A stretch of 64,000 bases of DNA, taken from assembly GCA_017499595.2 (NCBI GenBank), contig CM039002.1:62001-126000 (forward strand). Direction: 5' to 3'. Shown one piece after another: positions 1 through 64,000 of this stretch. The position numbers and the translations under genes are program-made. The notes beneath the pieces are model-generated. The model was given only the letters and a program-made list of their open reading frames with translations. It was not told the origin of the DNA and ran no database searches. Source of the DNA: Psilocybe cubensis (lineage: Eukaryota). Every line of letters begins with the position of its first letter. Within the stretch, counting starts at the first letter, position 1.

Positions 1-3000
1 TGTCGCCATTCCATGCCAAGTAAGATTCGATTGGGGGAAGGGATTGGGATGCGTGAGGGTCTTCAGGGTCTGGGTGAGGGGGAGAGGGAGGGGCATCTTG
101 TGTATGTTTCGTCTTCTGTGTGTTACATCCCATTCTTTACCAGTAATCGGCACCTAGCTTCTTTGTTTCGCCCATCTTTGGTTCTCTTTTTTAACTATTT
201 ATCATACAGGGCCGTTAAACAACAACAGAAGATCATTGTGAATGCGAACACAAACAACAAACGCAATCAGGCAAAGGCGCCCACCACGTGGGGAATGATG
301 TTTCGTAGCTTAACAATGACTGATTGTATGTGGCGCTGGTATCGACCTGTTACGCTCGGCTGTTCTCGTCGAGCCACCATGTATGCGCATACGGGGAGTT
401 GGGTTTAGTGTGTTCATGACCCCCTGTTTATGCCCCCCTCTCTCAGGGATCAGGATACTGATATTCCTCTGCACAATATCTCTGAAGCACAGAGTGCAGT
501 ATTGTTTGGGATGGGACCGTACTAAAATGAAATAATGGGGTGGTTTGTTACGTTCTCCGTAGTATAACGTCTTTACTTGAATCATACACAAAGAAACCTT
601 TGTAATATAGAATTTATATACTCGAGCACCGCATCAATGTCAATACCTCATTCTCAATGTTCCGCATTATCATTCCCGACAAGGGGACACGGACACTCAT
701 GCCACTGTGGCATGGACGCAGCCGCCGTATTCTCAACTTTGTGTCTCACACCCCATACACCCCTCCGTCGACCTCGAACCCTCCCTCGATCTCATCACAG
801 ATATCGTTCGACGATCATCCATTATCTGTCTATTGCTACATTCGATCTCTTGATCCACAATACCTAATTGTGGTAGAACCGCCACGCCAGTAATCTCGAA
901 AGCCAACCAACGCCGGCAGAATACTAGCACAGAATTCCAGGAACCCGGAGGTTCGTTTTGGTGAAGGGGAAACAAAATAGACTTTTTATGAAGCTGTGCC
1001 TCTTCGATATCCAATTCGGCTATTTCATTGTGAGAGCGGTAAGTCGCGTTGTAACACATCATCTTCCTTGCTTTATGTTTTTCCAGCGCTTACGAGTATT
1101 GTAGTGATTTGGAAGATGACGGCGAATTACCCCACGATCAGAGCAGGAACACCGAATTTCTAGTGACTCAACGTGCACCGTTCGAGAACAAATATCTCGG
1201 CCCAACCCTTCGTTACACGGTCGTGCAGTACGAATATGTGAGTAAAAAATTCCCAAGTATCATTTCGTTGTCTTGAATGTGCGCTAACCACTGCTAGCCA
1301 GTTCTTTCTCTGTTCACTCTCCGGGTACATCAATGATAGGGTACTCCCCCGTCGACACATCGTCTTCGAAAAGACGAACTTGGGAGTACCATCACTAGCT
1401 TGTCGCCCTAAGCAACAACAAAGCGATTCAAATTGCCTAACACTCCCAGCTAGGAATACGAGTCGGACACAGGCCAGCAGAATAAGAGGAATAGGCGAGA
1501 AGTGATCAGAAAGATTGGAGCGGGTAGACGTGTGATATCGCGGGTAAGCGACTTTGGTTGACTGTGGCTTTGACCTGCTGTGCTGCAATTCAATCCGCGT
1601 GCTTGTAATTCAATCTTGAACGTTAAGGCCTAAGGTGCACACAGATGGTTTTGGATCATAGTCGTAATTTTATATCTTAATCTTAATGAGTTACCCACAA
1701 AATCACATTTGATCGCTGAGAAACGATACAATTTCACTATGCAAATACACTTATTATTATCATTAATCACCATAAATGAACATGTGAGCTAGGCCGATGA
1801 AGTACAGGTGAATATCGATGTCGCCGTACTCGCAGGAAGTCCGTTGTACAGGCCATCATCCGCAGGTAGTTCAATTGAACTATGGCGCGAAGGACTGCCA
1901 CCAAATCAACAAGAACAGCCACACCACCCACATGTGTAGACTAAACACCCTAAAAGAGGGTGTGCGTATAGGGTGTATACGAAACCACACCTGCTTTGAC
2001 GATACCCGGACAGCGTGAGTGATAGGAAATGTAAAACAATATTAAGTATCGTGCAACACATCACCCAGAGAGGTTGGACGATGAGGCACCTACACACGCA
2101 ATGGACACAGACGTAAATAGGCTCTGAGCGATGGATGAGTCTGCACACGGGAATACACTCTTGCACAAAGTCACAAGTGCCGCGGCGCGTCGACATGCCC
2201 GCTAGGATCGAGGGATAGACCTCCCCCCATGAATGCATATGTGGGTTTGCGAGTCAAAATCAGACCGTGGAATATATGGGAAGGAACAGGTGAGAGTGTA
2301 GTGGCGCAGCAAGACGGTATGAGGTACGCACATGCACCGTGCGATTGCAGCGCAATACTGGGATGTTTCAGATGTTAAGCAGAGAAAGAAGGAGTTGACA
2401 GAGAGAGTAGAGCGGAAGAGGCGGAGAAACATGGTAGTCATATGCAATTAACGAGCTGCACAGAGTCGAGTGGAATCGGGATAAGATGTGAAATTAAGAC
2501 TCACTCAAACGACGGTTCAACAACACCTTCGCCAAGCGACGCTGTACATGATGCTCAGTTTGTCCGATACCGACCATACAATACCACAGTGGAAAATGGT
2601 GCGATGATTTATCAATGTGGGGGTGGAATGGTTAGGATGTGAGCATGAAGGCGGTGGTAGATTCTATGCAGAGGAAACAGTGAGGATATGAATCACAGAA
2701 GAAGACTCACTCGGCTTACACACACGCGCGCACATCCAACACATCCACCCACACCGTCGTTCCGCTTCTCATAGTACCCAATGCATCTACACCAATTACC
2801 CAAATTTGCCGATCACACGCCAACAAAGCACGTATGTGTGCAGATGACACCCTCTTGATCTCGCTCTTGTTCCATACCGGAGTCCGATTTGTAAAGGACA
2901 ATAGTGACGCGGGTTCGACGCCGATACGTGGCTTCTCAAGCAACATACCACCAGTACACAGAAGCGAGGATGCACCAGACGAAGAGGACGGAGACTGCAA

Positions 3001-5930
3001 CGTGGAATCGACAGGTACGAGTGGTGGCTTAAATCTTGAGTCTCAAAGGATTCATTAAGCAGAGTGTGATTGCGAGTGGTGGGGTATCGGGGTGGGCGTA
3101 GATGGCAAGGTTAAAAGTCGGAACCGAGATGAGGAGAGACCGTGTCGATAGCAAAGCGTGTTGATTCGTACTGCCTGTTACGGTGTTTAGCCGTGTTGTT
3201 TGGCGTGTTCGGCCAGCTACATACCCCACGCGATGCCGCAGGCAAAGCAGAATACACCGCCTATGTGTATCGACCAATGACTGTCTCTCCAACTGCTTTT
3301 TCCAAACTCTGCCATTCCAATACAATCTATGAAGTTTTGGATATCACTATGGTATGCCTTATGGATTTTTCCTATGTTACGCTAAACTGATTTTCTCCAT
3401 CTGGGATTCGCTCCAACAGTCATGGTTCCGCAACTGGTCTTGGCTTCTCCAATACATATGGAGATACATAGTCCTGTTTTACGTTCACAATGCACTTGAT
3501 ATTTGGATTAATCGACTTACAATAAGACGGCCTCGGGAGTGTTTCGGTAGGCCATTTACAAGAAGCTTACTGGGAGCCTACACAATGGTTATAAACATGA
3601 ATTTCGTTAGATCATAAATCCAGCACGGCTGACCTTGTCGGTGATGATCCGTCCATGACCAGTATTCTCCACAGGGCCTGCAGCACTCGGAATAAGGCCT
3701 TTAACCGTTGGTGAGAAAATCATTGTTTTGAAGAGCAGTTTACAGTGTTTTCATAATTAACAAAGCCACGGTTCCTCACCGATATACAGAGCACAGCAGC
3801 CTTGAGTTATACGTAGCTATAGACAGATATCGAGCGTTAGGTTGATGCTGCATAGATAAACAAAAGGGCATCCTGGACGTCATTGTTGACAATGCCAGGG
3901 TACTAGTATATGGGAGAATAGAAACAGGATATGACGGTGGTTTAAGCTGTGTACAGTACCGTACGTCTTATATATCAATACGTTGTGTGTAGGTATTTTT
4001 ATGACTCGATATCCGCAGCTTGATTGTGTGTATGGACCCTATGGACGGTATGGACTTGGCAGTCCATTGTCTTGGGCGTTGTCTAAATTAGTAACTAGAG
4101 ATACACACGCACATCTACATCGGGCAATAAAACAGTGGAACTCTTTCTGTTGGACACTAACCTCAGCTACTTTGGTATATAATTCTCAGTTGGTTTCAAA
4201 GAATATGGGACACGAGGAGGATTGATCGTTATTCGACAATCTATAAGCAATATCGTTCAGGTAATCTATAAGAAATATGGTTCAGCTTGATGTAACGTAT
4301 CAGATAGGACACACCATCGGGCAACATTATAAATTATGGGTTTGTTCAGTCCCGAGAAATTGTTGCTAATGTTCATCGGATTCAAACCAGGGCAAACAGC
4401 GTTCTGATCTGACCGCAATCAATAAACACTCTCACCAACGGCGAAGTCTTTCAATCGGAGATCAAACAATGTTGATTTGTGGCTGTGCCGTGAGGCCCAG
4501 ACCGTTTGAACCCTTGCACTTTGTGCTGACGCGCCGCGCCCGATGGCGACTCTTCGACAAGGCTCATTCAAGTTCATATTTCCTTGCGGTTTACACCACT
4601 TACTTGCTTCAATCACCTTTTCTCACGCCTACCAAATGTTTTTTTGTCCGACAATGCGTGTTCGAAAGTCATTGCGAAAGTCAAAGAACTTGAACGGTTA
4701 TAGGCAGAAGAAAGATCGGTCCGGTATACCTTGTATCAAGGAAGGGTGCATGTGGAAAGGAGGTTACTGAGATTTCTTTGTCACTGGTGCGTTGACTCTG
4801 GTATACCACCGATGTGCTGAGATTATGTCCTGGCCGTAGATTTGGAAGTCGTCGATCTCGATCTAAAATCTCATCTGCCCCCTTTTGAACCAAAACAAAC
4901 TGCATGTGCCGCCAACTCGGTCAAGGACTCCTCGTAGATGGCGCCTTGCTTCAGACAGCCACTCGCACAGGCAGCCTCCGTGTATGTCCATCTGCACATC
5001 TGCAATTGAAGGACGCTATACTCCCCCGACCACCATCCGCATTGAGTGGCACACTCGCCGCCTTTCAGTTAAGAATATAATGTATCTGAGGTATCCACTC
5101 GCACACCACGTTCCCAATCACCCACATTGACCGTAGAGCACGTGTCAGCGCAGGAGGTGTAATCTGGGTTTAATACAACGTTAAAAACTACAGCGGACAC
5201 ACACAAAACTGGTCCCGGTGTCTGTTTCTGAGTATCTAGGCCATGAGTAATGCTATGCAGTCTCAGAACAGAGTCACTGACTAATTTATTAGACAAGTAC
5301 ATATGCTGGTATCAAACAACTCACCTAGAGAACACCAAAGTATTCCTATCAAATTCTATATGGATCCTTTGTAGCTGATGCATCGTAAAGAATGTACCAG
5401 CACTATAGCGTTAACAAGACGCACGTTAACGTAGAAGATATTCTGGACTCTGTAAATGAAACTACGTCCGGACCTTTCAAAAATATTTACAAGTGTTTGT
5501 GCTTTACAATTCTTAACGACATTTCAATAGGGATCCGTACCGGTAACTCGAATTCGTTGGAATATGTCGTGGGGTGCCCATGGCTAGATATCGGTGAAAG
5601 GATATTGCATACCTCTCAAGCATCAGTGCTGATTGCTATATCGAATATGTTCAGTTGATCTGACCCGGTCTTGCGTGATAACACATTAATTTGATTAAAT
5701 GGTGAGAATTATGCCTAGATATTGCATGACCTCTATCATATTTCTTTTTCTATTTACCTCGAGAACCTATCTATTCTATCAGGCGACAAATATTCCCTCA
5801 GATGATTTTTCAAGGTGTTTTTTAGACTCTTTCTCGTTGAACAAAAATGTTTTTGAAACTCGGCGAAGCTTGCCGATCATGCCGTGACCAAATCGATACA
5901 AACTGAACAGATGTACCGATAAGATAAATA
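1..5930 (+). repeat. Segmental duplication unit, copy A
   Basis: About 190-1750 matches 18110-19420 and 51360-52890; 1910-3200 is near-identical to 19435-20742; 3200-4990 matches 25744-27550 and 53330-57200 (minus insertions); 5240-5925 matches 58580-59192. Confidence 0.9.
657..893 (+). CDS. Family Y small hypothetical ORF (copies at 10084-10299, 18583-18804 and 51810-52016)
   Basis: All four copies keep the frame M..I.P..G.R.L.PLWH....LSVY.Y from an ATG about 40 bp after a TATA-like TATATA/TTATAAA; the 18583 copy has an in-frame 18-nt deletion. Confidence 0.35.
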   Translation: MFRIIIPDKGTRTLMPLWHGRSRRILNFVSHTPYTPPSTSNPPSISSQISFDDHPLSVYCYIRSLDPQYLIVVEPPRQ

Positions 5931-7361
5931 TTATGTCTGATTCCTTCTACCCAACGTCAGTCCTCCGCTCCCCAACCTCCCTACAAATCACAGGTGCGTC
6001 AGTTTGTTGTTTGTAGATCTGTGATTGGAGTGCTTACTGTTCTATTTCCCTCGCTGTGCGTACGTCGGGCCTCATTCCTTTATACACCACATTTCCATAC
6101 TTGTCTATACGCACTATGCGCTCCGCCCGTTTCCTTCCTTGATTGGCGCCCCCGCTGGATGATCTGGGCGCTCTTTTCCGTATCAAGCTGACATGATGTA
6201 GAAGAATGTCAGATTAAAACAGTCGGTATGTGATTTTTTGAACATGCGCACCATCCACTCCCTGCCTTCCTTTGACACTCGGATCTGCAACCGTTTGTGT
6301 CAGTCCTACAAATTTCGAGAGATGGGAAATCAGAATATACCTTCGAGAATTGCCTGATGATCCGGCATTCCTTGTGGATGTTGGCTCAACGGGCGTGGAC
6401 CCGGAGCCATATAGCTCGTTGCGTCCTTGGTTCTCGGACATTCCATTTTGATGTCTTGTCTCTCCAAAAGCTGGACTCGGCAAGATTGAGGTGTCTTGAA
6501 TACTGTATGCGCCTCCCAAGTACCCCAGACCATCATCTTGCCCATGGTGTGGTACCGGGTTAGGTAGACTCCAGATGGCCCTGTATGGGGTGCCCCTCTG
6601 ATGAGGCAGATTGGTTTGCCGCCTTGATGTGCCCACAGACATATGCTGCTGGAAGGGGAATATTGGTGCAGAAATTGCACCCATTGTGGGCTCGTATACG
6701 ATGTCAAAACTATTGATCGGGGCGTGACTCATTGTGCGCCCGATATTGGAGTCGTTAAAAGACTCCTGACAGGCCACAGAGGAGCTCGCAAACGGTGCAG
6801 CGAGCTCACCCTGAATATTATCCATCTGCACGGAAGTCGGCGGGTGATAAGGAGGATTATCCCATGACATCGCCGCGGGATCGTTAAAATACTCGTTCAT
6901 CAACGTAAGATCGATGTCCCCGAGCTTCGTCCAATCCAACGATAGGTCTGTGACGGGCATTGGTGTCTCTTGTGCGGCTGATTCATGGTTCTATGGATGA
7001 GAGGTGGTTAAGTTGATATACCACATTGAAGTGGGGGTTAGGACACGTACGAGTGGACCATGTGTAACCCCCAGTGTTGGGGACACTGCGTTCCCGTCCT
7101 GCAAACGTTTATCTACAACGTTTGAAATGTCATTTCTTGGAGTAATCCCCCAATATTCAAACATATCGGGGATTAATGGTTGTCGGATATCTGCTGTAGT
7201 ACCATCTACTCCGCTCAGAGGGTAATGGTTTACTGGCAGATTAATGATGTGTATTAGAGTAATGTACATACAACGAGAGTCGCGATCTCACCGGCCTCAG
7301 TCTCATCAGCACCGTTCTGAGCAAGCATGATCTTGGAAGAAATAGAGGTGTTATAGGACAT
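5878..7361 (-). pseudogene. Family X copy 1 (close paralogue of 43763-45307; frameshift in the basic exon)
   Basis: Same exon structure (ORFs 6991-7269 and 6214-6960; intron 6285-6340). One base is missing relative to the 44 kb copy in the KRAPRS..GA exon, giving an early TAG. TATAAA at 7465-7470. Confidence 0.6.
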
Positions 7362-7698
7362 TGTGGGTTTGAATTCGAAGAGGAGAACTGATGGTTCAGA
7401 GATAAAATTCAGTGGGAGCGGATCGAAGTGGGAACTTTTGAGGTGAACAATGGACTGTCAAATCTTTATAACATGAGAAAAAACCCTGAACACGCCTTCT
7501 TCGAGTCATTCCTCAGTGCTGGAATGTCGCTGTGGGAAACAGTACGGTCGGTATCTTTTCATTACACTTCTCAGCTATCTTCTCGTTAAATTGGATGGCA
7601 CGACAGCGAGGATGCCAGACCCAATGACCTCAAGGTATAGACATTTATTAAAAGCTGAGATCATTATGGGTTTGAACATCATTATTTACCTCTAAGCT

Positions 7699-7765
7699 AA
7701 GTTGCGCAGGCATCGAGTATGGAGCACGCGGCAGCCGCGATGTGTACTACACCGGGTAGATCATA
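7699..7765. promoter_or_regulatory. Conserved double-palindrome module about 260-290 bp upstream of the family X TATA box
   Basis: AAGTTGCGCAGGCAT...CA-CGCGGCAGCCGCG-AT-GTGTACTACAC-CGGGTAGATCA. The first palindrome recurs at 14093, 40701 and 45673; the module is degenerate at 49054 and about 30560. Confidence 0.45.
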
Positions 7766-10700
7766 GCGGATAGACAACACACAATACGTATACAGTATGT
7801 CTTTCCCACTGAATCGATAACCTGAAAGCTGTACGGTCCGCCACTTTGTTCACACATATAGTCTCCCACTTTTTCATGTCAAATCCACAACCAAAAATCC
7901 TATTAATACATCATGAGATACTGTAACTCGCGTGAAACTCTACTCACATTTTACCAAAATTCGAGAAAGGTTCATGGCTCACATCGTATTGACCGTGTAT
8001 TCTTTCTAGGACGGCGGTGTCTGCGGAGGCATACATGAATTTGGTTCAAAAATCCACGCCAAATTTACAAGATAGATACACTCATCTCAAAGTTGAGGCC
8101 TGTCCGTCTACACGAGCTCGACCTTTGTGGCGCATTTTGATAAAATACGGCGTTGTTCCATTCCAGCTGCAGATATCCATCCAAAATATAGTAAATACGC
8201 ACCGTGTTACTCAGAGGGGCCATGGTTCAGATCTTCGAGTCGATAAGAAAATTGGACATGTTCCAGTGGACGTGTGGGAGAAATGTTGCGTACCTAATCA
8301 TTTTAAAGCGGCGATTAAACGTCTTTGGCTTCACCATCGACGATAGCTCCCTGCTCGAAACCCACAGCGGTGTTGTCTTTGGGCAGCGCAAGATTTGATC
8401 CACATGGCAGAGCCATATTTCATCTACCCTATGACAGCTATGAGCTCATATCCAACACTTCAGCCACACTGTGTGACTCAATGACTCCAAATGCTCGCAG
8501 CACATACAAAAACCTCCCATCGGCTCCCGTCACCCTTTCGCCTACCTCATCTATTTAAGGCATGTATACATCGAGGTGAGCTGATGTCTTTGAAAAACGT
8601 ATGGTGAGTTGCAATGGCATATATGTAGTGATGCGTTATCCCGTCACCACATTCATCTTACTCCTACTAGCCATCGATCACGTCCTCCTACCAGAGCATG
8701 CACAAGACTTATACATTTAAATCATCTACCTCCTCATAGTCCAAATCAACACACTCTCCCCGGAATCTTCCCCACTCACTTCCCCTCCCGACTCTTTCGT
8801 CAATGACCTGGAAGACCACCACACGCACCTCCCCCAGAGTTCTCTACAGACTCGCCAGCACGACGCGCCATCCGTTTGATTACTTTCTCGACGGATTTAA
8901 ACGTGAGCATGGGGATGCTTGAACGCTTGTGAGCCGGATACGGGGAGGGTTGTGGAGATGGATAGCGTTTGTTGACGTGCAGAGAGAATCATGTCCCTTC
9001 CGGATGTTGTAGCTGGGCTTTTCTCCTTCGGTTAATCTGGTACGTCTGCCTTAATGTCCCTACTATTTATACCCCCGCATCTTTTTTCGACCCCTTCACC
9101 AATGCCCTACAACCTCCGCCTCATTGTAGTTATCAAGGCTCATTGTGACGCCTACACAGTTCCCTACCAAGCCTCCGCTCGACTCCACATTCCCAACACT
9201 TCCATTCCGCTCGACTCCTTGCTGCCTAGGACTCCCCCTTCATCCGCTGCGGCCTCAACATTAGGTATATACGGCCTTACCATTAGATATGTGCTGTGGG
9301 TTGTCAGATATACCGTCTACCAGTTGTATGCAGTCCGTTTCTTCTTTGTTATCTCCGTCTTTGTGTTTCGGGTTGATTTATATATCATGCAGGGCCGTTG
9401 AACGAAAAACAAAATACCAACATGAACGCGAATACAAATACGAGAAGGTAAAGCAGCACACCACGTATGGAGTGAGACTCCCTAGCTAACACCAATCCAT
9501 TGTATGCGGTGTAGGAATCTCCCACGAGGCAGACGAATACGAAATATGGGCGCAGTCAGTGCAGATTATGCACATGTCGTTGAACTCTCGTCGAAACGTG
9601 GAAAAGGAAAGGGAGGGTTGGATGACGGGTTTGACAAAGGCCGTTTCAATTGGCGCGCTTGTGGGAGGTTGATCATGAATGAGTGATTATGGACTATGGA
9701 CACCGTGTCAATGGAAACTCAAACGGATTACTTGTGAGTCGACTAGATGTCTGTAAGCTTCACCACGGCCCTTGAACGATTGCGTCTACAGAACCTGTTA
9801 CGCTCGCCTGCTTCTCGTCAAGGTGGTCATATATGCGCACATATAAACTCAGCCCGTACACTCAGAGACAGGAACACTGTTCTGATTGCGGAGATCAAAG
9901 AGACTTTTATGGACACCTTTGATTGTGGGATGGAAAATGAAAGAGACAATCGGGAGGTTTGTTACGTTTGTTACAGCTTTATGTAAGAAATTTTCAACTT
10001 CGCATGAATTGTAGATAAAGAGACGTTTGTTTTATAAAATTCATAAATTTGATCACACAGTCAATTGCAATCCCCGACTCTCAATGCTCTGCACAATCAC
10101 CCCATACTCGGGGAACCGGAGGCTTACTCCACTGTGGCATGGAGGCAGACACTGGACTCTCAATATGTCCCACGTACACCTCACCCTCGCCCTCGCCCTC
10201 ACCATGGATCTGGAGCTGGTTCAATCACCATCATTATCTGTCTATAGCTACTATCGATACCTCGACACCGCCACTATTCTAGCGACACATCGACGCTAGC
10301 ACCGTAGCAAGTCTTTCCAGTCTACCAATACCTCCACAAAACCCGAGGAACTTGGACGTATATTTGCTGAATAGGCAGAAATCTTGTGGTCAAACACGAT
10401 CCGTTCGTTCTTGGCTGAGTGTAAGTCGTTTGTATCTTCCTTTGTAGAGACATTTAATTGATTGTATTGGGATGAATCATTTTTATCGCCTTTCTTTTAC
10501 AGTGTCTACGTACGAACCTCATTGAGAGATAGCAGACGATGCTGAGCCCACTTGCACCCCCTGCTCCGCGGCCTCAAAACCAGAAACATGGAAAACAAGA
10601 TCGATAGTTACACCACATATTGAACGGCGACATCGCACCACAATCTAACATGATTGGCAAAGCTACCGCGACAATATCCTCATCCATTATCTGCTCTTCT

Positions 10701-19200: not shown

Positions 19201-21723
19201 GGTAAGCGACTTTGGTTGACTGTGGCTTTGACCTGCTGTGCTGCAATTCAATCCGCGTGCTTGTAATTCAATCTTGAACGTTAAGGCCTAAGGTGCACAC
19301 AGATGGTTTTGGATCATAGTCGTAATTTTATATCTTAATCTTAATGAGTTACCCACAAAATCACATTTGATCGCTGAGAAACGATACAATTTCACTATGC
19401 AAATACACTTATTATTATCATTAATCAACCATAAAGAACAGCCACACCACCCACATGTGTAGACTAAACACCCTAAACAAGGGTGTGCGTATAGGGTGTA
19501 TACGAAACCACACCTGCTTTGACGAGACCCGGACAGCGTGAGTGATAGGAAATGTAAAACAATATTAAGTATCGTGCAACACATCACCCAGAGAGGTTGG
19601 ACGATGAGGCACCTACACACGCAATGGACACAGACGTAAATACGCTCTGAGCGATGGATGATTCTGCACACGGGAATACACTCTTGCACAAAGTCACAAG
19701 TGCCGCGTCGCGTCGACATGCCCGCTAGGATCGAGGGATAGACCTCCCCCCATGAATGCATATGTGGGTTTGCGAGTCAAAATCAGACCGTGGAATATAT
19801 GGGAAGGAACAGGTGAGAGTGTAGTGGCGCAGCAAGACGGTATGAGGTACGCACATGCACCGTGCGATTGCAGTACAATACTGGGATGTTTCAGATGTTA
19901 AGCAGAGAAAGAAGGAGTTGACAGAGAGAGTAGAGCGGAAGAGGCAGAGAAACATGGTAGTCATATGCAATTAACGAGCTGCACAGAGTCGAGTGGAATC
20001 GGGATAAGATGTGAAATTAAGACTCACTCAAACGACGGTTCAACAACACCTTCGCCAAGCGACGCTGTACATGATGCTCAGTTTGTCCGATACCGACCAT
20101 ACAATACCACAGTGGAAAATGGTGCGATGATTTATCAATGTGGGGGTGGAATGGTTAGGATGTGAGCATGAAGGCGGTGGTAGATTCTATGCAGAGGAAA
20201 CAGTGAGGATATGAATCACAGAAGAAGACTCACTCGGCTTACACACACGCGCGCACATCCAACACATCCACCCACACCGTCGTTACGCTTCTCATAGTAC
20301 CCAATGCATCTACATCAAACACCCAAATTTGCCGCGACCCTATACGTACCCGATCACACGCCAACAAAGCACGTATGTGTGCAGATGACACCCTCTTGAT
20401 CTCGCTCTTGTTCCATACGGGAGTCCGATTTGTAAAGGACAATAGTGACGCGGGTTCGACGTCGATACGTGGCTTCTCAAGCAACATACCACCAGTACAC
20501 AGAAGCGAGGATGCACCAGACGAAAAGGACGTGGACTGGAACGTCAAATTGACGGGTATGAGTGGTGGTTTCGATGTTGCGCATCAGAAGGTTCATTGAG
20601 CCAGAGTGTGAGTGCGAGTGGTGGGGTATCGGGGTGGGCGTAGATGGCAAGGTTAAGGGTCGGAACCGAGATGAGGAGAGACCGTGTCGATAGCAAAGCG
20701 TGTTGATCCGTACTGCCTGTTACGGTGTTTAGCCGTGTTGTTACGAGTCTTTACGTAAGTAAAGATGAGTTCTTTTATCCCCACAACCCAGCGAGCAAAA
20801 ATGTCCTCGCCAATTGTCCCCATCAAAATATTATTGATGCGATCAATGTCGTTACCGCTATCGGTATTTTCCTTAAGCGGTCACCGGACCCCCTAAGCAA
20901 CCCCTTTCCAATTCATTCTACAACTTCTTTTTACCATTGGTTACTTTAAAGGTTGTTTTTGATTTGTTTTGATCGCAATGTGAATGTGCGTTTCCATAAA
21001 ATTAATTATACCCAACAACAATAGTCCTACTCAATTCACTTTTTTGTGTTGTTGTTTAATTTTTAAAACCATGTGGAACCGTCTAGCCAACGTGCTTATA
21101 TATTGTACTAATACTTAGAGATGGAACAAATGCACTCTTTGAACTATGGGTCTGAAAGGTTGGAAATAGAACTGTGCAGGCACACACGTTCCTTGATATC
21201 GGTAGCTTCATCAATCAGAGTTCAAATAGAAATAATTACGTGTTCTTGGGTTCTGGGCGTTCTGTACTATTTGAATTTGATTTTCTGATTCATGATCATT
21301 TCTCACGCATACCAATTTGTTCTTCCCCTACGTCGGGCGTCTATCGGCTTACGGTTAATATATTTATTGACGTAGTATAGACAATGCACTTTTCTCCGCA
21401 CTGTTTTACCCATGGCTTCCGCGTTATCCCCCCGTTTCCAACAGTATGTTCACTGTTTTATCTCATTTGGTTATTACTTATTTTTTAGAGTCTTTCCGCC
21501 TCCCATGGACGATGTGTACATGGATCAGATGGATCTGAAAACCCTCTACCGTTTCTCTTGGACTTGCAAGGAGCTAAACGACCGTGTTTTGGGCTATATG
21601 CGCCGCGCCTTCTGTCCCAAAAATTTATTTGCTCCTATCTTCAAACCCAATGAACATTTGCTGTTTCGTCTTCTCCAGTTCAAGACTGGCCTGGTTATTT
21701 CAGGTTCCACCGTTTTGCATTTT

Positions 21724-23286
21724 ACTTGTTTTAGTGGTCCAACGCAAAGCGTGGCATGACAAGACTTTACATCTTACAATTATATAAAATATTTTTTAAT
21801 CTAGATTTATATAACATAGTTAATATATATTAATATGTTCTGAATGCACAGCCAGATACTGGGCAAGGTTATGATTAATTACTATGACTTAGGTCTACTA
21901 CAAGCTTAGTTGTGTCAGACACAAAAAATAGCTGCACAGGTTATAAGGCCTAATTGTAAGGAAGAACTTGTCTATTATAATTTTCATACCTGCTAAATAT
22001 TGAAGAATTCCAGATCTGCTGGGAGAATCCCGTATGGAAAACTGATGGAAGAATGCTCATGTGTATGGCTGCCCAAGTGGGGACATATTTCCCATAAATA
22101 TAATTTTCTTATTTTTGAAAAGTGCATCAAGAGTTAAACAATATTGTGTGCAAAAACATTTGTTTGGTGCGCATATTTCTTTTTGGTATAGTTTGATGTT
22201 GCTGTGAACACAATTGGCTGTGTGGAAACATATTTCAAGCATAATTTGCAAGTGTTAGTGCATTATTTCTTCCCCAAAATACATTCAATGCATGGAAAAC
22301 ATTATTCAAAATGACCATCTCTTGACCAAAGTGGCCAGTGCTCAATGCAAATTGAGTGTAGTGACCGTGGGAATATCCTGCGTACAGTGTGCGCAGGATA
22401 TTCCCACGACCTGCTTATTAATTCACGGCCAGTACAAACACCACAGCAAGTAAAATATAATAAGATCATCTAAACTAGGACTGAAAATAATTATTATTGC
22501 CAAAAATACTTGTATTTTACCTAAAGTATATGCAATGCATCTCAGTAATATATCAGGAATTACCAGAGAAGTTCAAGTTGCTCAATGCAAAGTGCGGCAA
22601 CCGTGAGAATAACTTGCATACACTATATGCAAGTTATTCCCACAGTCTGCTTATTAATTCATGGCCAGTATGAACAGCACAACAAGTTTAATATGACAAG
22701 TTATTTGAAGTGGCATTAAAGATAATAGCTAGATACATAATGTTTATTATTCTTTATTCTATGCCACCACAGTCTGCTAGTCATTCATGCTAATTTTTTT
22801 TGATAACAATAAAGCATTCTATTTACCTCTACTTGCCGTTAGAGGTGTATAAAGCATGCAAAACAGTTGGTATGTAATTGATTGTGACTAATTAATGGCC
22901 TTAAATCAGTTGAATGAGGTCATTATTATAAAATTTTTGGTTATGAGCGATGATTATCTGCGTCAAAATGTTTAACTTGCAATTAAAAAGTCATAATGTA
23001 ATAGTATCTAATTTTGTTTTCTACCATATGGCAGCTAACCTATCTACCTAGCTAATATCTAGTATTTTAATTTCCATATCCCCTTGGTAGGAACAAAAAC
23101 TAACAGAAATTCTATGATAGTAACCGATTATTAAGTCAAGCATACCGGTTAAGTAAAAAACCGGTATTAATCACGCAATTTTGATGGCATCAATGATTTA
23201 CTGATGGGGACAATTGGCAAGGACATATTTTTGTACAGTGGGTTGTGGGGATAAAAGAACTTGCTTTACTTACATAAAGTTTCATA
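21724..23286 (-). mobile_element. Nested, inverted, AT-rich relative of the same Helentron-like family (about 1.56 kb)
   Basis: 21725-21770 matches the reverse complement of the outer 3' end (CTTGTTTTAGTGG...GCGTGGCATGAC.AG.CTTTAC). 23160-23286 matches the reverse complement of the outer 5' end (TAAGTAAAG..AGTTCTTTTATCCCCACAACCC..GCCAATTGTCCCCATCA). Removing it restores the cargo reading frame HF-INRANIWIPGDMDMYV. Confidence 0.85.
22339..22690. repeat. Two copies of the same 41-43 bp palindrome within an approximately 237-bp-period duplication in the nested element
   Basis: Palindromes at 22366-22408 and 22603-22643, each preceded by TGCTCAATGCAAA and followed by CTGCTTATTAATTCA.GGCCAGTA. 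Confidence 0.9.
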
Positions 23287-24343
23287 ATCAATCGTGCTAA
23301 TATATGGATTCCGGGTGACATGGACATGTATGTCGAGCACAGATAAACATCCTCTTCATCGACATTACAATACCACTGGAGTGGTCGTTAACCTATGGTG
23401 CCAAGGTTCTTTTGTCCAACTGATTACGACTTGTCAATCGGTGGTAGAGTGCATTTTGGGGTATCATAGCAGTATGTCCCCAATGTCATGTGTCAAAACA
23501 ATGTTAACTTCAATTTTGTTCTACTGCAGCCGGCGTCATGAATTTTGTTACCTTTGAGAAGGTGTACAGCTTGTATCCAAATGCTACCTTTGGACATCAA
23601 GTCTCTCTGTTGCAACCTTCTGCCGACCTCAAGCGCGCGCAAAAATTTCTTGCAAAATATCATTCCCGTGGCTTGAAATTTGATCTTTCCATTCCATCGC
23701 AAACTTTGAAAATGGACCGCCATATCCAAAGCAGAATACAGTCTATCAGGGACAATGTAAATGTTGGGTATAGTTCATCTCGTGGTCATGTTCTCGTTGT
23801 GCTGGATTACGATCCTTATCCAGAGTTGTTCTCTCCTGGGATTAGACGGGTTGGCGATAGGCATTGTTGGGTTTATTCTTTGCCTCTTTTACCCAAAGCA
23901 AATCAGACTTTCTTTGTTGAAGCCAATTCATGGGCATTGTTGCTCAATGAATTTGATTGTTTGCATTTTGGTGTCCGTCGCATCAACAGTATCGCATTAG
24001 ATTTTCACTACACAGCGGCAGATGTTTACCAATTACACAAGTGTGTCAAAAAAGCTATCAAATCCTGGGAAAGGGGTATAAGGTGTGTGCTCTTTAGTTT
24101 TAGTATTTGTCAATTTAATTCCTGTAATGTAGGCAAAAAGATGACCGTGTACATGCAACTGTTTTGTATTTGCTATCCAGAAAGGCAGATATTTTTTGGT
24201 TGCATCGCCCTCAACCACAAAGCCTCTTGTGGAATGGATATTTGTAATTTCTTCCATCCTTAGTCAAATTTTTGTTCGAAATAAACTTGTGTTCTCATCC
24301 TCATTCTTTTTGTCTTAATTTGTAAGTTTGACTTGCGGATGAG

Positions 24344-24524
24344 CGTGGGAATATCCTGCGTACAGTGTACGCAGAATATTCCCACGGTCAACCTCTCCCA
24401 ATATTCAGCCGAGTGTGGGAATATTCTGCGTACACTGTACGCAGAATTCTCCCACGGACTTCCTCGCCGATATTCAGCTGAGTGTGGGAATATTCTGCGT
24501 ACAGTGTACGCAGGATTCTCCCAT
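24344..24524. repeat. Tandem array of three 41-43 bp palindromes (period 69-70 bp)
   Basis: CGTGGGAATATCCTGCGTACA-G-TGTACGCAGAATATTCCCACG at 24344-24386, with copies at 24415-24455 and 24484-24524. Confidence 0.95.
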
Positions 24525-24669
24525 GGGGTGCCAACTAACACCTTCAGATAATTTCTGTCATGAAAACGACTTGACAAATTATTCCTTGTTATTTACAATG
24601 TTCACACAAATGGATTGATTGTTCGTTCAGCACATTTATGATATCCTTGTCTTTCTATGTACATATGTA

Positions 24670-25644
24670 TTAATCTTGGGACATAGTATTGCTATTGTGG
24701 ACTGTGTCCTCATTTAAGCGCATACGTGCCATCCTCTGTTGCGTGTCTTCAATGTCAATCTGACCTTTGTACAGCTGCCTCTTTGTCCTACACAAAACAG
24801 CAACCTGTCTTTTCGCTGGAGTATAGCGCGACCGCATTCTGAGAATATCAGCTTTCTGTTGGAAGTTATAAATGGCTATGAGACTGTTTAATGTAACATT
24901 GCTTACCTCTCTTGCCTCCTGGTCCAAGGCAAGTATTCCGCGAAGAGCGACAACAAATTTGTACTTGTTTCCTTGGGCAGGAAATGCAACAAAGGCAACA
25001 CTGATCTCGACAATGTTTCCAATTTGTATGGAGGCAGGATTATAAGAATAATATCTGTTGCAACATGATATTAGTTTGGTTGTGATGTGTTGTTGGTATT
25101 TTCTAAACATACCTGGCTGTTCCGTCAGGAAGTATCTCCCGACGAAGAAACTGTACCTTGTTATCGATTGCGTGGATGAAACTATCCCCTACCATGGACG
25201 CCAACACGTTATCAGGGTTGACCAGGGGATGAAAACCTATGTTGTCAGATTAGTCTTAATATGCGGATACCTTCGTGAAATATTGGCTATGCGCATGGAA
25301 AACATTGAAACCCGTGTCTTTGTGAAGAACTGGGTCATAGCCGCTGACGCTGTCCGCGGGAAAATTGTTTGCAAAACGGAGGAAAACTTCTTCTAGCTTT
25401 TCCATCACCTTATTGAACACAATGTCTCCGAGTCCCGTGATAGCAATGGCGGTACGTAAATATGGTTGTTGCTTGACCGTTCTGTCGCGGCTGTAACAGT
25501 CCTCATTTGTAATTAATTCACCTCAATGGAGTGGACGTACGAAGCAGGCTTTGCCATTGGTGGTAGCATCTTGTCGCTAACTATGCCTTGGAGTCTGAAT
25601 ATCACTTCGTCCATTGCACCGATATCCACGTCAAAGTTGGACAT
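24670..25644 (-). pseudogene. Helentron cargo gene 2: uncharacterised, possibly OB-fold ssDNA-binding-like; two in-frame TAA stops
   Basis: Spliced reading MSNFDVDIGAMDEVIFRLQGIVSDKMLPP...YLRTAIAITGLGD...HSQYFTKVSAY*D*SDNIGFHPLVNPDNVL...FIHAIDNKVQF...NPASIQIGNIVEISVAFVAFP..KYKFVVALRGILALD, with canonical introns. The fold assignment is inference only. Confidence 0.6.
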
Positions 25645-28350
25645 ATTTATATTATATTATATATATATTATATTATTACAAAGCGTGACGCTGAATCGTA
25701 AAGACTCGTCATGCCACGCTCCGCGGTGGCCCACTAAAACAAGTTTGCCGTGTTCGGCCACCTACATACCCCACGCGATGCCCCAAACAGAACAGAATAC
25801 ACCTCCTATGTGTATCGACCAAAGACTGTCTCTCCAACTGCTTTTTCCAAACTCTGCTGTTCCAATACAATCTATGAAGTTTTGGATATCACTACGGTAT
25901 GCCTTATGAAATTTTCCTATGTTACGCTAAACTGATTTTCTCCATCTGGGATTCGCTCCAACAGTCATGGTTCCGCAACTGGTTCTGGCTTCTCCAATAC
26001 ATACGGAGATGTATAGAGACCCTGAGTGGCATGTGTCGAAGAGAGACTTTTGGATTAATCGACTTACAATAAGACGGCCTCGGGAGTGCTTCGGGAGGCC
26101 ATTCACAAGAAGCTTACTTGGAGCCTATGCAATGATTATAGACATGAATTTCGGTAGATCATGAATCCAGCACGGCTGACCTTGTCGGTGATGATACGTC
26201 CATGACCAGTATTCTCCACAGGTCCTGCATCACTCGGAATAAGCCTCTAACCGTTGGTGAGCAAATTGTTGTTTCGATGAGCAGTGTACAGTGTTTTCAT
26301 ACCTAAGGGGACCACGGTTCCTCACCGCTTTCCAGAGCATAGTATCCTGAAGTAAGACGTAGCTATATACAGATATTGATGGACAAGTAAAGGACATCCT
26401 CGACGTCATTCTTGACAATGCCAGAGTACTAGAGGGTGAGAGAAGAGAAACAACTTACCTATGGTGGACTAAACTATGTACAGGTGTGTCCGTCTTATAT
26501 ATCAATGTGTGTGTGTGTCTCGCTGTCAATGACTCAGTTTCCGCAGCTTGATTGTGTGCATGGACGTTATGGACTTGTCAGTCCGTCTGTAAATTAGGTG
26601 TTGGCTAAAATGAGAAACCAGATATACACACGCACATCTACATCGCCCAGTAAGACGAGTGGAGTTCTTGGTGTGAGGAAACTAGGCGCCGTCATTACAC
26701 AAGGAGGATCGCTGGTGTGGCAATTCAATTTAAACAATCTATAAGCAATATGGGTCAGGGACTTGACGTAAAGTATCAGACAGAACACACCACAGGCAAT
26801 GTTATAAATCAAGGGATTTTCCAATTTTGTATAATCTCTGCTAACATTTATCGGATTCTAACCAGGGTGCAGAGTTATCTGACCTGACCACAGTCGATAA
26901 GTAACTAACGGTGAAGTCTTTCAATCGGAGATTGAACGATCTCGATTTGTGGCTGTGCCCGTGGGAGACCCGTTTGAACCTTGCACTTTGTGTGCACTTT
27001 GTGTGCACTTTGTGCCGACGGGCGATGGAGAATCTTCGACAAGGCTCATTCAAGATCATAGCTCACTACGCTCTACTCCGCTTATTTTTACTACAGTGTT
27101 CTATTACATCCTCCCTCGCACCCCTTTCCCCCAACATTCAACTCAATCAAGACAGGCCTAGCAGACGGTTTTTTGTCCGGCAACGCGTGCGTTCAAAAGC
27201 CATTGCAACAGACGGAGAACTAAAAGAGTTATAGGCAGGGTAGCGATCGGTCTGAGTAGACCTTGCATGAAGGGAGTGTACATGTCCGAAAGAGTTTAAG
27301 GAGATACTTCTGTCACCGGTGCGTTGAGTCTGGTATACGACCGATTTGCTGAGATTCTGTCCTTGCCGCAGATTTACAAGTCGTCGATCTCGATCTGGGT
27401 TCTTACCTACCCTATTTTTGACGAGAACTATTTCTACGTGCCCCTCATTACCTCGTTCAAGAACTCCGTGGAGATTGGGCCTTACTTCAGACAGCCACTC
27501 GCACGCCCATACATAACGCGCTGTGCACATCCATCCCCACGGTCTGCAAGTCAAAGACGTTCAAATTTCTCATGATGCAAGTTGCGTTGCGTAAACGGTG
27601 AGTACCGTATGATTACACTTGACCCTGGCTACAGTGTCTCTGCGTCTCCATCACACCGTTCCCCACCCTCCCCCTTCCTTCCCCTCGTGATTGAGACAAT
27701 AAATATGGCCTCCACCCATGCACCCGATACATAGCTTGTTTCTGCGCCTGTCGTGCAGCGAGTTTGAGCCACACCTCTCTTTATTATCATCTCAAACATT
27801 CCCTCCCGTTCAGTCTAATCATGTGTTCTACCGTTTGCCGGCAAGGTCAATTTCCTCGCATATACGCATTGCCGCATTGTACTAGGGATTCCTCCTGTCG
27901 CGTAGATATTCTAAGGTATGCATCATTACTTATCGGTCGACGCTCACTGATGTTGGTACGATATACTAAAGATACTGTCATCAAACAGCGCCGCCGCTCA
28001 GGAACAAGTCGAGTCTATGCGCAGTCACCATATCCAGTTGAGCATTCATACGGGCGCACGCCGGAAGCTCGAGGCAACGCTAACGGGAACTCGGTGGCGC
28101 TTGTCTGAAAATGGTTTTTCTTTCAAGTACATGTTACGAGTAAGCAACCCTGCGTTATGTTTATTTCATTTACACAATATATCTTCCTAGGCTTTTCATT
28201 CGATTTCCCTCCATCCCCATCCGCATAGATTCGCACAGTCACCACTTCAGTTGCAAAGTATAAAGTAGGATAAACAAAGTGCTCGCATCTAAAAGATATC
28301 AAGCTAATTACTTACTAATTATCAAATAACTACGCTACACATGGGAGGCT

Positions 28351-51700: not shown

Positions 51701-54497
51701 TGACTGCCTCTGTACAATAACGTCTTTACTTCAATCGTACTCAAAGAAACCTTTGTTTTATAAAGTTTATATACTCGAGCACTTCATCGATGTCAATACC
51801 TAATTCTCAATGTTCCGCGTTATCATTCCCGACAAGGGGACTCGGATGCTCATGCCACTGTGGCATGAACGCAACCACCATACTACCGACCTTGCGTTCC
51901 ACACACCATACACCGCTCCGTCGACCTCGACCCCTCCCTCGATCTCAACACATCAATCGTTCGAGCATCATCCATTATCTGTCTATAGCTACACTCAATC
52001 CCCCGTTCCATTATAAGAAACTGTGGAAGAACCGCCACGCCAGTAATCTCGAAAGCCGACCAACGCCGACAGAATACTGGCACAGAATTCCAGGAACCCA
52101 GAGGTTCGTTTTGCTGAAGGGGCAACAAAATAGACTATTGATGACGCTGTGCCTCTTCAATATCCAATTCGGCCATTTCATTGTGAGAGCGGTAAGTCGC
52201 GTTGTAACACATAATCTTCCTTGCTTTATGTTTTTCCAGCGCTTACGAGTATTGTAGTGATTTGGAAGATGACGGCGAATTACCCCACGATCAGAGCAGG
52301 AACACCGAATTTCTAGTGACTCAACGTGCACCGTTCGAGAACAAATATCTCGGCCCAACCCTTCGTTACACGGTCGTGCAGTACGAATATGTGAGTAAAA
52401 AATTCCCAAGTATCATTTCGTTGTCTTGAATGTGCGCTAACCACTGCTAGCCAGTTCTTTCTCTGTTCACTCTCCGGGTACATCAATAATAGGGTACTCC
52501 ACCTTCGACACATCGTCTTCGAACAGACGAACTTGGGGAGTACCATCACTAGCTTGTCGCCCTAAGCAACAACAAAGAGATTCAAATTGCCTAACACTCC
52601 CAGCTAGGAATACGAGTCGGACACAGGCCAACAGAATAAGAGGATTAGGTGAGAAATGATGAGAAAGATTGGAGCGGCTAGATGTGTGATATTGCGGGTA
52701 AGCGACTTTGGTTGATTGTGGCCTTGGTTGTATTTCAATCCGCGTGCTCGTAATTTAATCTGGAGCGCTAAGGCCTAAGGTGTACACAGATGGTTTTGGA
52801 TTATAGTGGTAATTTTATATCTTAATCTTAATGAGTTACCAACAAAATCACATTTGATCTCTGAGAAACGATACAATTTCACTATGTAAACCAAATTTGC
52901 CGTAACCCTATACTTATCCCATGCCACGCCAACGACGCTCCTCTAACACCTGGTATTGTCCTTCTGATCTCGCTCTAATTTGATACCGGCGTCCGACTTC
53001 TGAAAGAAAATAATTATGCGTGTTCGACGCCGATACGTGGCGTCTCAAGCAACACACCACCAACACGCAGAAGCGAGGATGCACCAGACGAAGAGGACGG
53101 AGACTGCAACGTGGAATCGACAGGTACGAGTGGTGGCTTAAATCTTGAGTCTCAAAGGATTCATTAAGCAGAGTGTGAGTGCGAGTGGTGGGGGTATCGG
53201 GTGGGTGTAGATGGCAAGGTTAAGGGTCAGAACCTAGATGAGGAGAGACCGTGTCGATGGCAAAGCGTGTTGATCCGTACTGCCTGTTACGGTGTTTAGC
53301 CGTGTTTTTTTGCCATGCTCGGCCACCTATTACACACCCCACGCGATGCCGTAGGGAAAGCAGAATGCACCGCCTATGTGTATCGACCAAAGGCTGCCTC
53401 TCGAAATGCTTTCTCCAAACTCTGCCGTTCCAATACAAGCTATGAAGTTTTGGATATCTATGTTAGGGTAAACTGATTTTCTCCATCTGGGATTCGCTCC
53501 AACAGTCATGGTTCCGCAACTGGTCTTGGCTTCTCCAATACATATGGAGATACATAGTCCTGTTTTACGTTCACAATGCACTTGATATTTGGATTAATCG
53601 ACTTACAATAAGACGGCCTCGGGAGTGTTTTGGTAGGCCATTTACAAGAAGCTTACTTGAAGTCTACGCAATGATTATAAACATGAATTTCGGTAGATCA
53701 GAAATCCGCTACGGCTGACCTTGTCGGTGATGATCCGTCCATGACCAGTATTCTCCACAGGTCTTGCATCACTCGGAATAAGGCCTTTAACCGTTGGTGA
53801 GCAAATTATTGTTTTGAAGATCAGTGTGCAGTGTTTTCATACCTAAGGAAACCACGGTTCCTCACCGCTTTCCAGAGCATAGTAGCCTGAAATGAGACGT
53901 AGCTATACACAGATATGGATGGACAAGCAATGGACATCCTGGACGTCATTCTTGACAATGCCAGAGTACTAGAGGGTGGGAGAAGAGAAACAACTTACGA
54001 TGGTGGACTAAACTGTGTACAGGTGTGTCCGTCTTATATATCGATGAGTGTGTGTGTCTCGCGGACTCAGTCTCCGCAGCTTGATTGTGTGCATGGACGA
54101 TATGGACTTGTCAGTCCGTCTGTAAATTAGGTGTTGGCTAAATTAGAAACCAGATATACACACGCACATCTACATCGCCCAGTAAAACGAGTGGAGTTTT
54201 TGGTGTGGGGAAACTAGGCGCCGTCATTACACGAGGAGGATCGCTGGTGTGGCAATTCAATTTAAACGATCTATAAGCAATATGGTTCAGGGACTTGACG
54301 TAATGTATCAGACAGAACACACCACAGGCAATGTTACAAATCAAGGGATTTTCCAATCTCGTATAATCTCTGCTAACGTTTATCGGATTCTAACCAGGGC
54401 GCAGGGTTTTCTGACCTGACCACAATCGATAACCAACGGTGAAGTCTTTCAATCGGAGATTGAACGATCTTGATTTGTGGCTGTACCCGTGAGAGAC

Positions 54498-63441: not shown

Positions 63442-64000
63442 CAGGGCAGAGCTTGTAGCAGTGCAGACGTTCTCCCCTTCTAAGCGTCCGCGGTGTGGTT
63501 TGCTGATTGCGCCTTCAGTCTTGCGGCCTCCCTGTTTGGCTGTTGATCGCCTGCGGCTTTGGAAGCCGTTTCCTGTGTGGTCAGGTGCTGCAGCAGTGCG
63601 TCAGTCCTCGGAGGAAGAGCTAGTGCGGGTTTTGGACTTGCTGAGCTGCACATGGGCGCCGGCAACCAAGGTTGTTTATGGTGCTGGTTTATTGGTTTTT
63701 AACGTCTACTGTGATCAGCGCAACCCGCCTATACCGGAGGGTGACCGCGGGCCCATCTCAACCTCTCTGTTGTTGGAATTCATTGCAGCGTGCGCAGGTT
63801 TGTATGCAGGTTCCACACTCCGCAACTATTTTTACGGTTTGCGTGCTTGGCATACCCTGCATGGGTTGACTTGGGCGGTGGACGAGACACGCGCTTCTGC
63901 CGCTCTCACCGCGGCAGAGCGAGTTGCTCCGCCATCTGCTCGATCACCACGTTTACCCCTGCGTGTGGCGGACATCGAGGCCATGTACACTCGTCTGAAC
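63353..64000 (+). CDS. Tyrosine recombinase, N-terminal part; runs off the window
   Basis: Open frame from ATG 63353 overlapping the end of pol: LRPPCLAVDRLRLW...WAPATKVVYGAGLLVFNVYCD...FIAACAGLYAGSTLRNYFYGLRAWHTLHG, typical of the N-terminal domain of fungal DIRS/Ngaro YR. Absent from the ORF track because it has no stop in the window. Confidence 0.88.
   Translation, partial: MTPGSTRSGHWTFLNGETTNTPSRKRGQSSRAELVAVQTFSPSKRPRCGLLIAPSVLRPPCLAVDRLRLWKPFPVWSGAAAVRQSSEEELVRVLDLLSCTWAPATKVVYGAGLLVFNVYCDQRNPPIPEGDRGPISTSLLLEFIAACAGLYAGSTLRNYFYGLRAWHTLHGLTWAVDETRASAALTAAERVAPPSARSPRLPLRVADIEAMYTRLN

Follow-up and report, generated by a model that had tools for sequence, protein, structure and literature searches.

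What inserted a 5-kb block of DNA into one copy of a segmental duplication in Psilocybe cubensis, and are the two convergent genes inside that block its cargo? The question arises from a 64-kb stretch of contig CM039002.1 (positions 62,001 to 126,000 of the forward strand; hereafter the window), for which an original prediction proposed a gene-carrying rolling-circle transposon of the Helentron/HINE or Helitron2 kind. The analysis leads to a narrower reading, to which a probability of about 0.93 is assigned: the block is a non-autonomous HLE2 (Helitron2) element that arose by deletion from a 26.4-kb multi-gene parent, received a nested insertion and spread from one founder to approximately two dozen sites. 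Its ends, target rule, set of copies, parent, breakpoints, broken genes and CpG-biased decay can all be read directly in the genome.

The element (20741..25743, plus strand) is a 5,003-bp insertion lying in one of a set of old tandem segmental duplicates, and its limits follow from self-BLAST of the window, from the junctions and from the genomic copies. A paralogous segment aligns to the flank of the element through 20742 (1911-3200) and aligns again from 25743 onwards (3198-4139); a second paralog, in the pieces 52965-53306 and 53309-53458, breaks at the same place. Alignment thus yields two empty sites on the plus strand, one at 3198..3201 (G^TTT) and one at 53305..53311 (a run of seven Ts), where the prediction had placed them. 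At the first, the empty GTTG^TTTGG stands against the filled GTTG|TT ACGAG…CAAG|TTTGCC, confirming an insertion into a T run with two additional Ts and no target-site duplication (TSD); the second fits an insertion less exactly.

The element runs from TT to CAAG and stops before the target T. The 13-mer ACGAGTCTTTACG occurs exactly twice in the 64 kb, at 20743..20755 on the plus strand, 2 bp from the 5' end, and inverted at 25697..25709 on the minus strand, 34 bp inward of the 3' end. As a count this is poor evidence for asymmetric repeats: at two or fewer mismatches there are three matches in the window where 1.1 would be expected, and three were likewise reached in 11 of 100 shuffles. Support for the repeat comes instead from its position and its genome-wide recurrence. 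Folding places a 5' hairpin with a 7-bp stem and a GTAA loop over the 5' repeat (20748..20765, plus strand; -4.7 kcal/mol), of which a longer form is present in a related 24-kb family, and a GC-rich stem-loop downstream of the 3' repeat, 13 bp short of the element end (25713..25730, plus strand; -5.7 kcal/mol), both energies being given without shuffle comparison. The repeats and hairpins are therefore as originally described. Rfam returned no match in 20500-26000.

The family was surveyed across the 46.6-Mb assembly, where the counts of ends are lower bounds: at least 29 matches to the 5' end at ≥96% identity (40 of 56 candidates were scored) and at least 28 to the 3' end at ≥93% (40 of 50). 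All 5' loci (30/30) start with TT and all 3' loci (30/30) read CAAG|T. Joining ends by coordinates gave 27 pairs. Excluded were the three 5' ends that found no partner, of which C14 has two and C8 one, the two partnerless 3' ends of C18 and C9, and a single nested end. The 27 pairs comprise 23 of the 5-kb type, four of which have been stretched to 10-25 kb by subsequent insertions, two of 8.4 and 9.0 kb, one of 26.4 kb and one belonging to a sister subfamily on C7. The co-occurrence of the ends, their position next to T and the lack of a consistent TSD had all been anticipated, and all hold genome-wide: every pair (27/27) has the form TT…|T and 25 of the 27 are free of any duplication exceeding 1-2 bases. 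The base that precedes TT is A in 13 pairs, G in 11, T in three and C in none. Empty sites were retrieved for seven of the 27, five of them at ≥94% identity, and two Ts had been added at each; as one of these targets holds a single T, a TT target is not needed. The genomic sequence fits the addition of both Ts at the 5' end or of one at each end. Reads of two other isolates cover the element at about 10-fold depth, with mixed flanks exactly at 20741 and 25744. Proteins nearly identical to those of the family are assigned to Psilocybe cubensis by their sources. The joint of the empty site is present in 4/4 sequencing runs; it is not taken as an insertion polymorphism because the two paralogous sites could yield it.

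Several loci depart from the simple 5-kb form. C14:211452-215131 consists of two 5' halves of the element, inverted head-on and devoid of 3' ends, and the 5-kb copies at C8:201355, C11:2210076 and C1:4540070 have been enlarged to 11-25 kb by other transposons, the insert at C8:201355 carrying a CxC4 (KDZ-associated) domain.

The 26.4-kb copy, at C3:3668727-3695134, has the same ends as the 5-kb element and contains a stop-free frame of 2,781 codons, which runs on the strand opposite to the TT-to-hairpin direction. Pfam identifies DUF6570 (7.5e-42), Helitron_like_N (3e-31) and PIF1 (2e-28) in this RepHel frame; motif 1, the HUH motif (VEQQGRLTLHLH), YxxxY and helicase motifs I-III, V and VI are intact, and its PDB matches are PIF1 helicases and Helraiser. 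No endonuclease family is detected in the frame by Pfam at E≤0.1, and the 15 other parent frames give nothing over any Pfam cut-off, with no DDE or recombinase family among them. The expectation that a long copy with these ends would encode a HUH-Rep joined to a PIF1 helicase, not a DDE transposase, is thus borne out.

Against this background a different kind of transposon is exceedingly unlikely, be it a DDE (cut-and-paste) element or one with a tyrosine recombinase, in either case duplicating a T of 1 bp. The junction can formally be read as an element between duplicated Ts, and DDE-type elements are common in this genome and lie inside some copies; however, the repeats are neither symmetric nor terminal, the long copy that shares these ends encodes HUH-Rep/PIF1, and the symmetric terminal inverted repeats, fixed TSD and DDE transposase in long copies that characterize DDE elements are all lacking. 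Canonical HLE1 elements are recognized by 5' TC, 3' CTRR, an A^T target and no inverted repeats; here the 5' end is TT, the 3' end CAAG and the repeats asymmetric. Strict Helentrons have RepHel fused to an apurinic endonuclease domain, and a TT target with a variable number of terminal Ts, neither of which is seen in this family. DUF6570 is given as an HLE2 marker in PMC11417382. As the parent holds DUF6570, HUH-Rep and PIF1 and no endonuclease, the family would be classed as HLE2/Helitron2 and not as a strict Helentron; judged on ends, target and domains, it has every tested feature of that class (asymmetric repeats, two hairpins, TT…|T with no regular TSD, a HUH-Rep plus PIF1 partner, and DUF6570). 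Hairpins at the 5' repeat and after the 3' repeat are also found in the sister and 24-kb families. Of the dual label in the original prediction, the Helitron2 half stands, and the Helentron half in its strict sense does not, given the missing endonuclease domain and the fixed terminal Ts.

Alignment of the 5-kb element to the parent covers parent positions 1-937, 1115-3421 and 26309-26409 at 93, 95 and 99%, and resolves the layout as parent 1-937, a nested element, parent 938-3421 and parent 26309-26409; the window copy additionally misses ~119 bp at 23345 that most copies retain. The deletion junction falls at 25643..25644, where parent 3,421 is joined to 26,309 and ~22.9 kb, including the RepHel gene, has gone. 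On this alignment the 5-kb family is an internal deletion of the C3 parent in which the inherited accessory genes are broken, and the prediction of a non-autonomous rolling-circle element in a basidiomycete gains a RepHel-bearing source. In two copies on C6, of 8.4 and 9.0 kb, the nested element is absent and parent positions 1-7969 and 25836-26409 remain; by the same comparison they are longer deletion forms of the parent. Between the parent and the window copy there are 119 substitutions, and because 61 of them are CpG C>T changes against 14 T>C the parent is placed near the ancestral state. Five 5-kb copies have 84 changes in common and only 16-29 private changes each, with a pairwise divergence of 1.5-2.0%, which argues for a burst from one founder. 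The copies decay mainly via CpG C>T, and the 5-kb element is itself a young and ordinary non-autonomous derivative. The parent is not depleted in CpG across most of its length, even though decayed copies of its left end number two dozen elsewhere.

The original prediction had overlooked the nested element, an array of palindromes and the broken state of both genes. The nested insertion (21725..23287, minus strand), delimited by self-BLAST, junctions and reads, is a 1.56-kb non-autonomous HLE2 of a sister subfamily, with the structure TT…CAAG|T, inserted in inverted orientation at A^T inside the first gene; its ends are 78-87% like those of the outer element. At 25 loci, plus one partial, its 3' end is found again at 98-100%, in every case within a copy of the 5-kb type; C6, C7 and C11 hold free relatives at 89-91%. 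A minority of reads (39 and 40) skip it exactly, as is expected from parent-type copies. At C1:4181389-4191566 a 5-kb copy sits inverted inside the nested element of another 5-kb copy. Both nestings being inverted relative to the outer element, they fit the idea that a stop signal on the same strand would truncate the latter. A 7.9-kb sister-subfamily element at C7:3335822-3343760, which carries a helicase fragment and a KH-domain frame, was considered as the parent of the nested element and rejected because its helicase piece shows no relationship to the RepHel of C3 (25% over 145 aa, E 0.02); we presume this piece to be a canonical-Helitron fragment. Palindromes of ~44 bp were located by palindrome scan, two within the nested element (22364..22645) and three, also visible by self-BLAST, in an array between the 3' ends of the two genes (24342..24526). 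Eight are present in the parent, five in the window and six in the C7 element, and none in the other family regions scanned.

Gene A, the first of the two genes, is whole in the C3 parent, and in the 5-kb family the nested element splits its GS motif from its DxD motif. The 5' part (21412..21724, plus strand), defined by homolog alignment and a model, comprises an F-box-like N-terminus and the ISGS motif and is truncated by the nested element; the 3' part (23288..24247, plus strand), placed by parent alignment, starts at the DxD motif. Pfam reports an F-box in 2/13 homologs, and the alignment displays an ISGS…DxD (hG[GS]…DxD) motif on a predicted nucleotidyltransferase fold. The model, of moderate confidence, has a mean predicted local distance difference test score (pLDDT) of 62, and the heads of CCA-adding enzymes and poly(A) polymerases top both structure searches (Z 9-11, root-mean-square deviation (rmsd) 3.1-4.5 over 154-165 residues). 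In the Atlas, the clusters around gene A are fungal, and a viral cluster that contains Gad2, at 0.91, offers a lead. From the predicted fold, the product of gene A in the parent is most likely a nucleotidyltransferase linked to an F-box. The gene appears again in the parent, in a decayed C5 family and in an 18.6-kb family on C4 and C9. This last is a pair of HLE2s, at C4:0.33 Mb and C9:2.74 Mb, that are 99.93% identical and hold several gene A family members. On C6 and C8 gene A loci have no Rep within ~15 kb, the C8 locus adjoining a gene B homolog.

Gene B lies on the minus strand (24670..25643) as a remnant recognized by parent alignment and a model, with two in-frame stops in the window copy; the deletion removed its promoter and first exons throughout the 5-kb family, and full-length homologs are ~60 residues longer at the N-terminus. 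Its model (pLDDT 88) resembles a binding protein for single-stranded DNA (SSB) of the phage and giant-virus type. The top match is T7 gp2.5 (1je5; Foldseek 9e-6, Z 11.4, rmsd 4.8 over 170 residues), followed by the Enc34 SSB (Z 10.3) and African swine fever virus (ASFV) CP312R, and unrelated OB folds score Z≤5. These three SSBs lead in two structural searches with the predicted model; sequence identity to gene B is 8-13%. The basidiomycete family to which the gene belongs is large, counting 605 representatives at E≤0.001; Pfam on 119 homologs found no family beyond noise and a PDB sequence-profile search nothing meaningful. Going by the modelled fold, the most likely role of gene B in the parent is to coat the single strand that is displaced. 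A homolog resides in the 24-kb HLE2 family, at whose loci all outside matches of one gene B search lie.

That the element moves two convergent genes as cargo is the part of the original prediction that fails, as both were inherited from the parent and both are disrupted in the 5-kb family. Since genes A and B also travel with other HLE2s in this genome, they are best regarded as accessory genes of the parent lineage that are dead in the 5-kb derivative. Public annotation does place proteins on pieces of these genes (P0002, 20 members; P0005, 18 members), exon 3 of gene A and part of gene B remain open in most copies, both gene families are widespread in Basidiomycota, and neither RepHel nor gene B lies near distant gene A homologs at any of 23 metagenome loci (1-16 kb, ~25-54% identity). 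Such observations could favour a gene-capture vehicle spreading two functional host-derived genes. This explanation is very unlikely, because gene A is cut between GS and DxD by the 1.56-kb insertion, gene B is without its promoter and ~60 N-terminal residues, and the 5-kb copies contain stops and show a near-neutral ratio of nonsynonymous to synonymous polymorphism (pN/pS; 0.71-1.19 for the largest exon of gene B in nine copies). Furthermore, three of the five outside gene A loci of this genome are within ~11 kb of a Rep gene.

Several observations weigh against the derivation from the C3 parent as a rolling-circle element. This assembly contains one copy of the parent, whose own activity is therefore putative. 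The Rep residues are no exact match to the Helentron diagnostics of Thomas et al. (S in Rep motif 2, preceded by F/Y-x-R), with T for S and YYG for Y-x-R: in the motif YYGTVEQQGRLTLHLH a T occupies the S/L position and the R is lacking. Two of the 27 insertions have flanking duplications, a perfect one of 45 bp at the C3 parent and one of 41 bp, with five extra bases, at C5:313161-318230; occasional long TSDs of 44 and 50 bp are described for Helitron2 as a minority outcome (PMC3627910). A circle junction with joined ends is not among the joints listed in the four runs, a list that leaves aside 24 weaker joints. Exon 3 of gene A has a pN/pS of 0.33-0.61, below 1, in the 5-kb copies, on few changes, and the metagenome loci mentioned above count against the reading as well.

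Finally, a 24-kb HLE2 family with similar ends, at seven loci, could supply the transposase. Its members, at C5:2.90-2.93 Mb and six other loci, are ~24.2 kb long and carry a forward RepHel together with an Spt5 NGN/KOW-like gene. It is a real, though minority, possibility that the 5-kb element, while of the same class, is now mobilised in trans by the 2,808-codon RepHel of this family and not by that of its own parent. TTACGAGTC is common to their 5' ends and GACTCGT-hairpin-CAAG|T to their 3' ends; the seven loci carry DUF6570, five with a full frame; and the 24-kb family is the younger, two copies being 99.987% identical over 23.4 kb, whereas the 5-kb element's own parent is present once. 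On the other hand, the 5-kb ends are 99% identical to those of the C3 parent and only a short terminal motif is common to the 24-kb family, with no BLAST match at the ends, and the 5-kb copies, 1.5-2% apart, are older than the burst of the 24-kb family. RepHel orientation is reversed in the C3 parent and forward in the 24-kb family, with the same terminal motifs.

On the preferred reading, descent from the C3 parent, the history includes an internal deletion of ~22.9 kb, by which the transposase gene was lost and gene B was stripped of its 5' end; a sister non-autonomous element entered gene A in reverse, and a founder with both changes then spread. By analogy with the Helitron literature, RepHel acting in trans would nick one strand at one end via its HUH/Y2 site, the PIF1 helicase would peel off a single strand, and the repeat and hairpin at the other end would halt the peeling. 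The strand, probably via a circle, would be joined before a T, usually in purine-T, with no staggered cut. Bao & Jurka proposed pairing of the two repeats as the stop (PMC3627910), and a circle has been suggested for FoHeli1 (PMC5148889). The nested element would be copied through, since its stop hairpin is on the opposite strand. A peel-and-paste model has reportedly been derived from Helraiser. In the parent, gene B would replace the RPA gene carried by other Helitrons; in the 5-kb copies genes A and B are passive remnants.

Among described systems, the Helitron2 group is alike in its asymmetric repeats of 8-15 bp, with the 5' repeat 0-2 bp from the end and in a hairpin, the 3' repeat just before a hairpin, a T start, normally no TSD and a RepHel that is at times reversed; it differs in the target (TTTT^T/C there, purine^T here) and in the distance of the 3' repeat from the end (20-30 bp there, 34 bp here; PMC3627910), and the 26-kb parent with many accessory genes sets the present family apart. 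FoHeli1/2 and FoHeliNA1/2 of Fusarium oxysporum similarly have two hairpins, deletion-derived non-autonomous forms and self-insertion, with a fixed number of Ts and open reading frames (ORFs) reversed in some subgroups; these are elements of 5-11 kb that lack an RPA-like gene and have one additional ORF at the most (PMC5148889). The present basidiomycete parent, in contrast, measures 26.4 kb and bears SSB-like, two nucleotidyltransferase-like and other genes, and internal palindrome arrays occur. Helentrons and HINE/DINE-1 elements share subterminal repeats of 12-15 bp, a 3' stem-loop, an unchanged target and deletion-derived partners (PMC4067079); unlike them, the present family has no detected endonuclease domain, its terminal Ts are fixed and it can do without a TT target. 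HELPO1/2 of Pleurotus ostreatus, compared by description, are also basidiomycete Helitrons with whole genes of unknown function and non-autonomous members, and are canonical in their A^T target, T[C/G]…CTRR/CTTG ends and ~1,400-aa RepHel (PMC4289320). A TET-carrying Helitron2 is on record in Agaricus (PMC12730594). A literature search judged mostly from titles found no account of this family or of a Psilocybe Helitron2, and none of Helitrons with a JmjC gene or an SSB of the gp2.5 type; Repbase and the HELIANO tables, with 'Ssb-like_OB' in HLE2s, lay outside the search and may cover relatives.

The interest of the system sits in the gene set of the parent, an unusually large multi-gene element. 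Besides RepHel it has at least seven further frames, including the second gene A, which is head-to-head with RepHel. A frame at 12.2-13.8 kb of the element is one that we take, by eye and from an HxD…H pattern, to be JmjC-like, and Pfam and PDB sequence searches gave it no support. Homologs of this frame occur at C7:2692974 and at ~20 other loci, inside a multi-copy 17-kb Plavaka-type transposon in which another frame looks, by eye, like Spt5; a pool of accessory genes may therefore be common to different classes of transposon in this genome. The last ~290 aa of RepHel contain Cys/His motifs presumed, again by eye, to resemble a ubiquitin-protease-type domain, for which a PDB sequence search was without support and Pfam silent.

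A bolder proposal, which taken as a whole must be called doubtful, is that the giant HLE2s of mushrooms are small replicons with their own DNA-handling module and not bags of captured fragments. In such a replicon the phage-type SSB/annealase suggested by the gene B model would guard a displaced strand of 20-26 kb; the putative nucleotidyltransferase might finish ends, prime the second strand or, like the viral Gad2 that it resembles, disarm a defence of the host; second-strand origins or protein-loading sites might be provided by the ~44-bp palindromes between the genes; and the JmjC-like gene might spare the parent from silencing, leaving gene-less offspring to decay by CpG mutation. Were this true, the intact parent and its 5-, 8- and 9-kb deletions would show, as a dissection made by nature, which parts are required in cis and which in trans.

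The biochemistry of HLE2s has scarcely been studied, and the fungal HLE2s in the compared literature are ascomycete elements of 5-11 kb with almost no accessory genes. The present family offers a basidiomycete HLE2 with exact ends, a purine^T target plus two Ts, an intact 26-kb parent and a graded series of deletions, a combination that should make a mini-element assay straightforward. The predicted fold of gene B suggests that a phage-type SSB may stand in for RPA in such elements. In terms of annotation, broken accessory genes of transposons account for dozens of the 'hypothetical proteins' of this genome.

Elsewhere in the window, a multi-kb segment is repeated in tandem at least three times over positions 1-59200, in diverged copies with unclassified short-exon genes, and the GC-rich stretch at 59400-64000, with long overlapping frames and only a weak Pfam match, is probably a retroelement.

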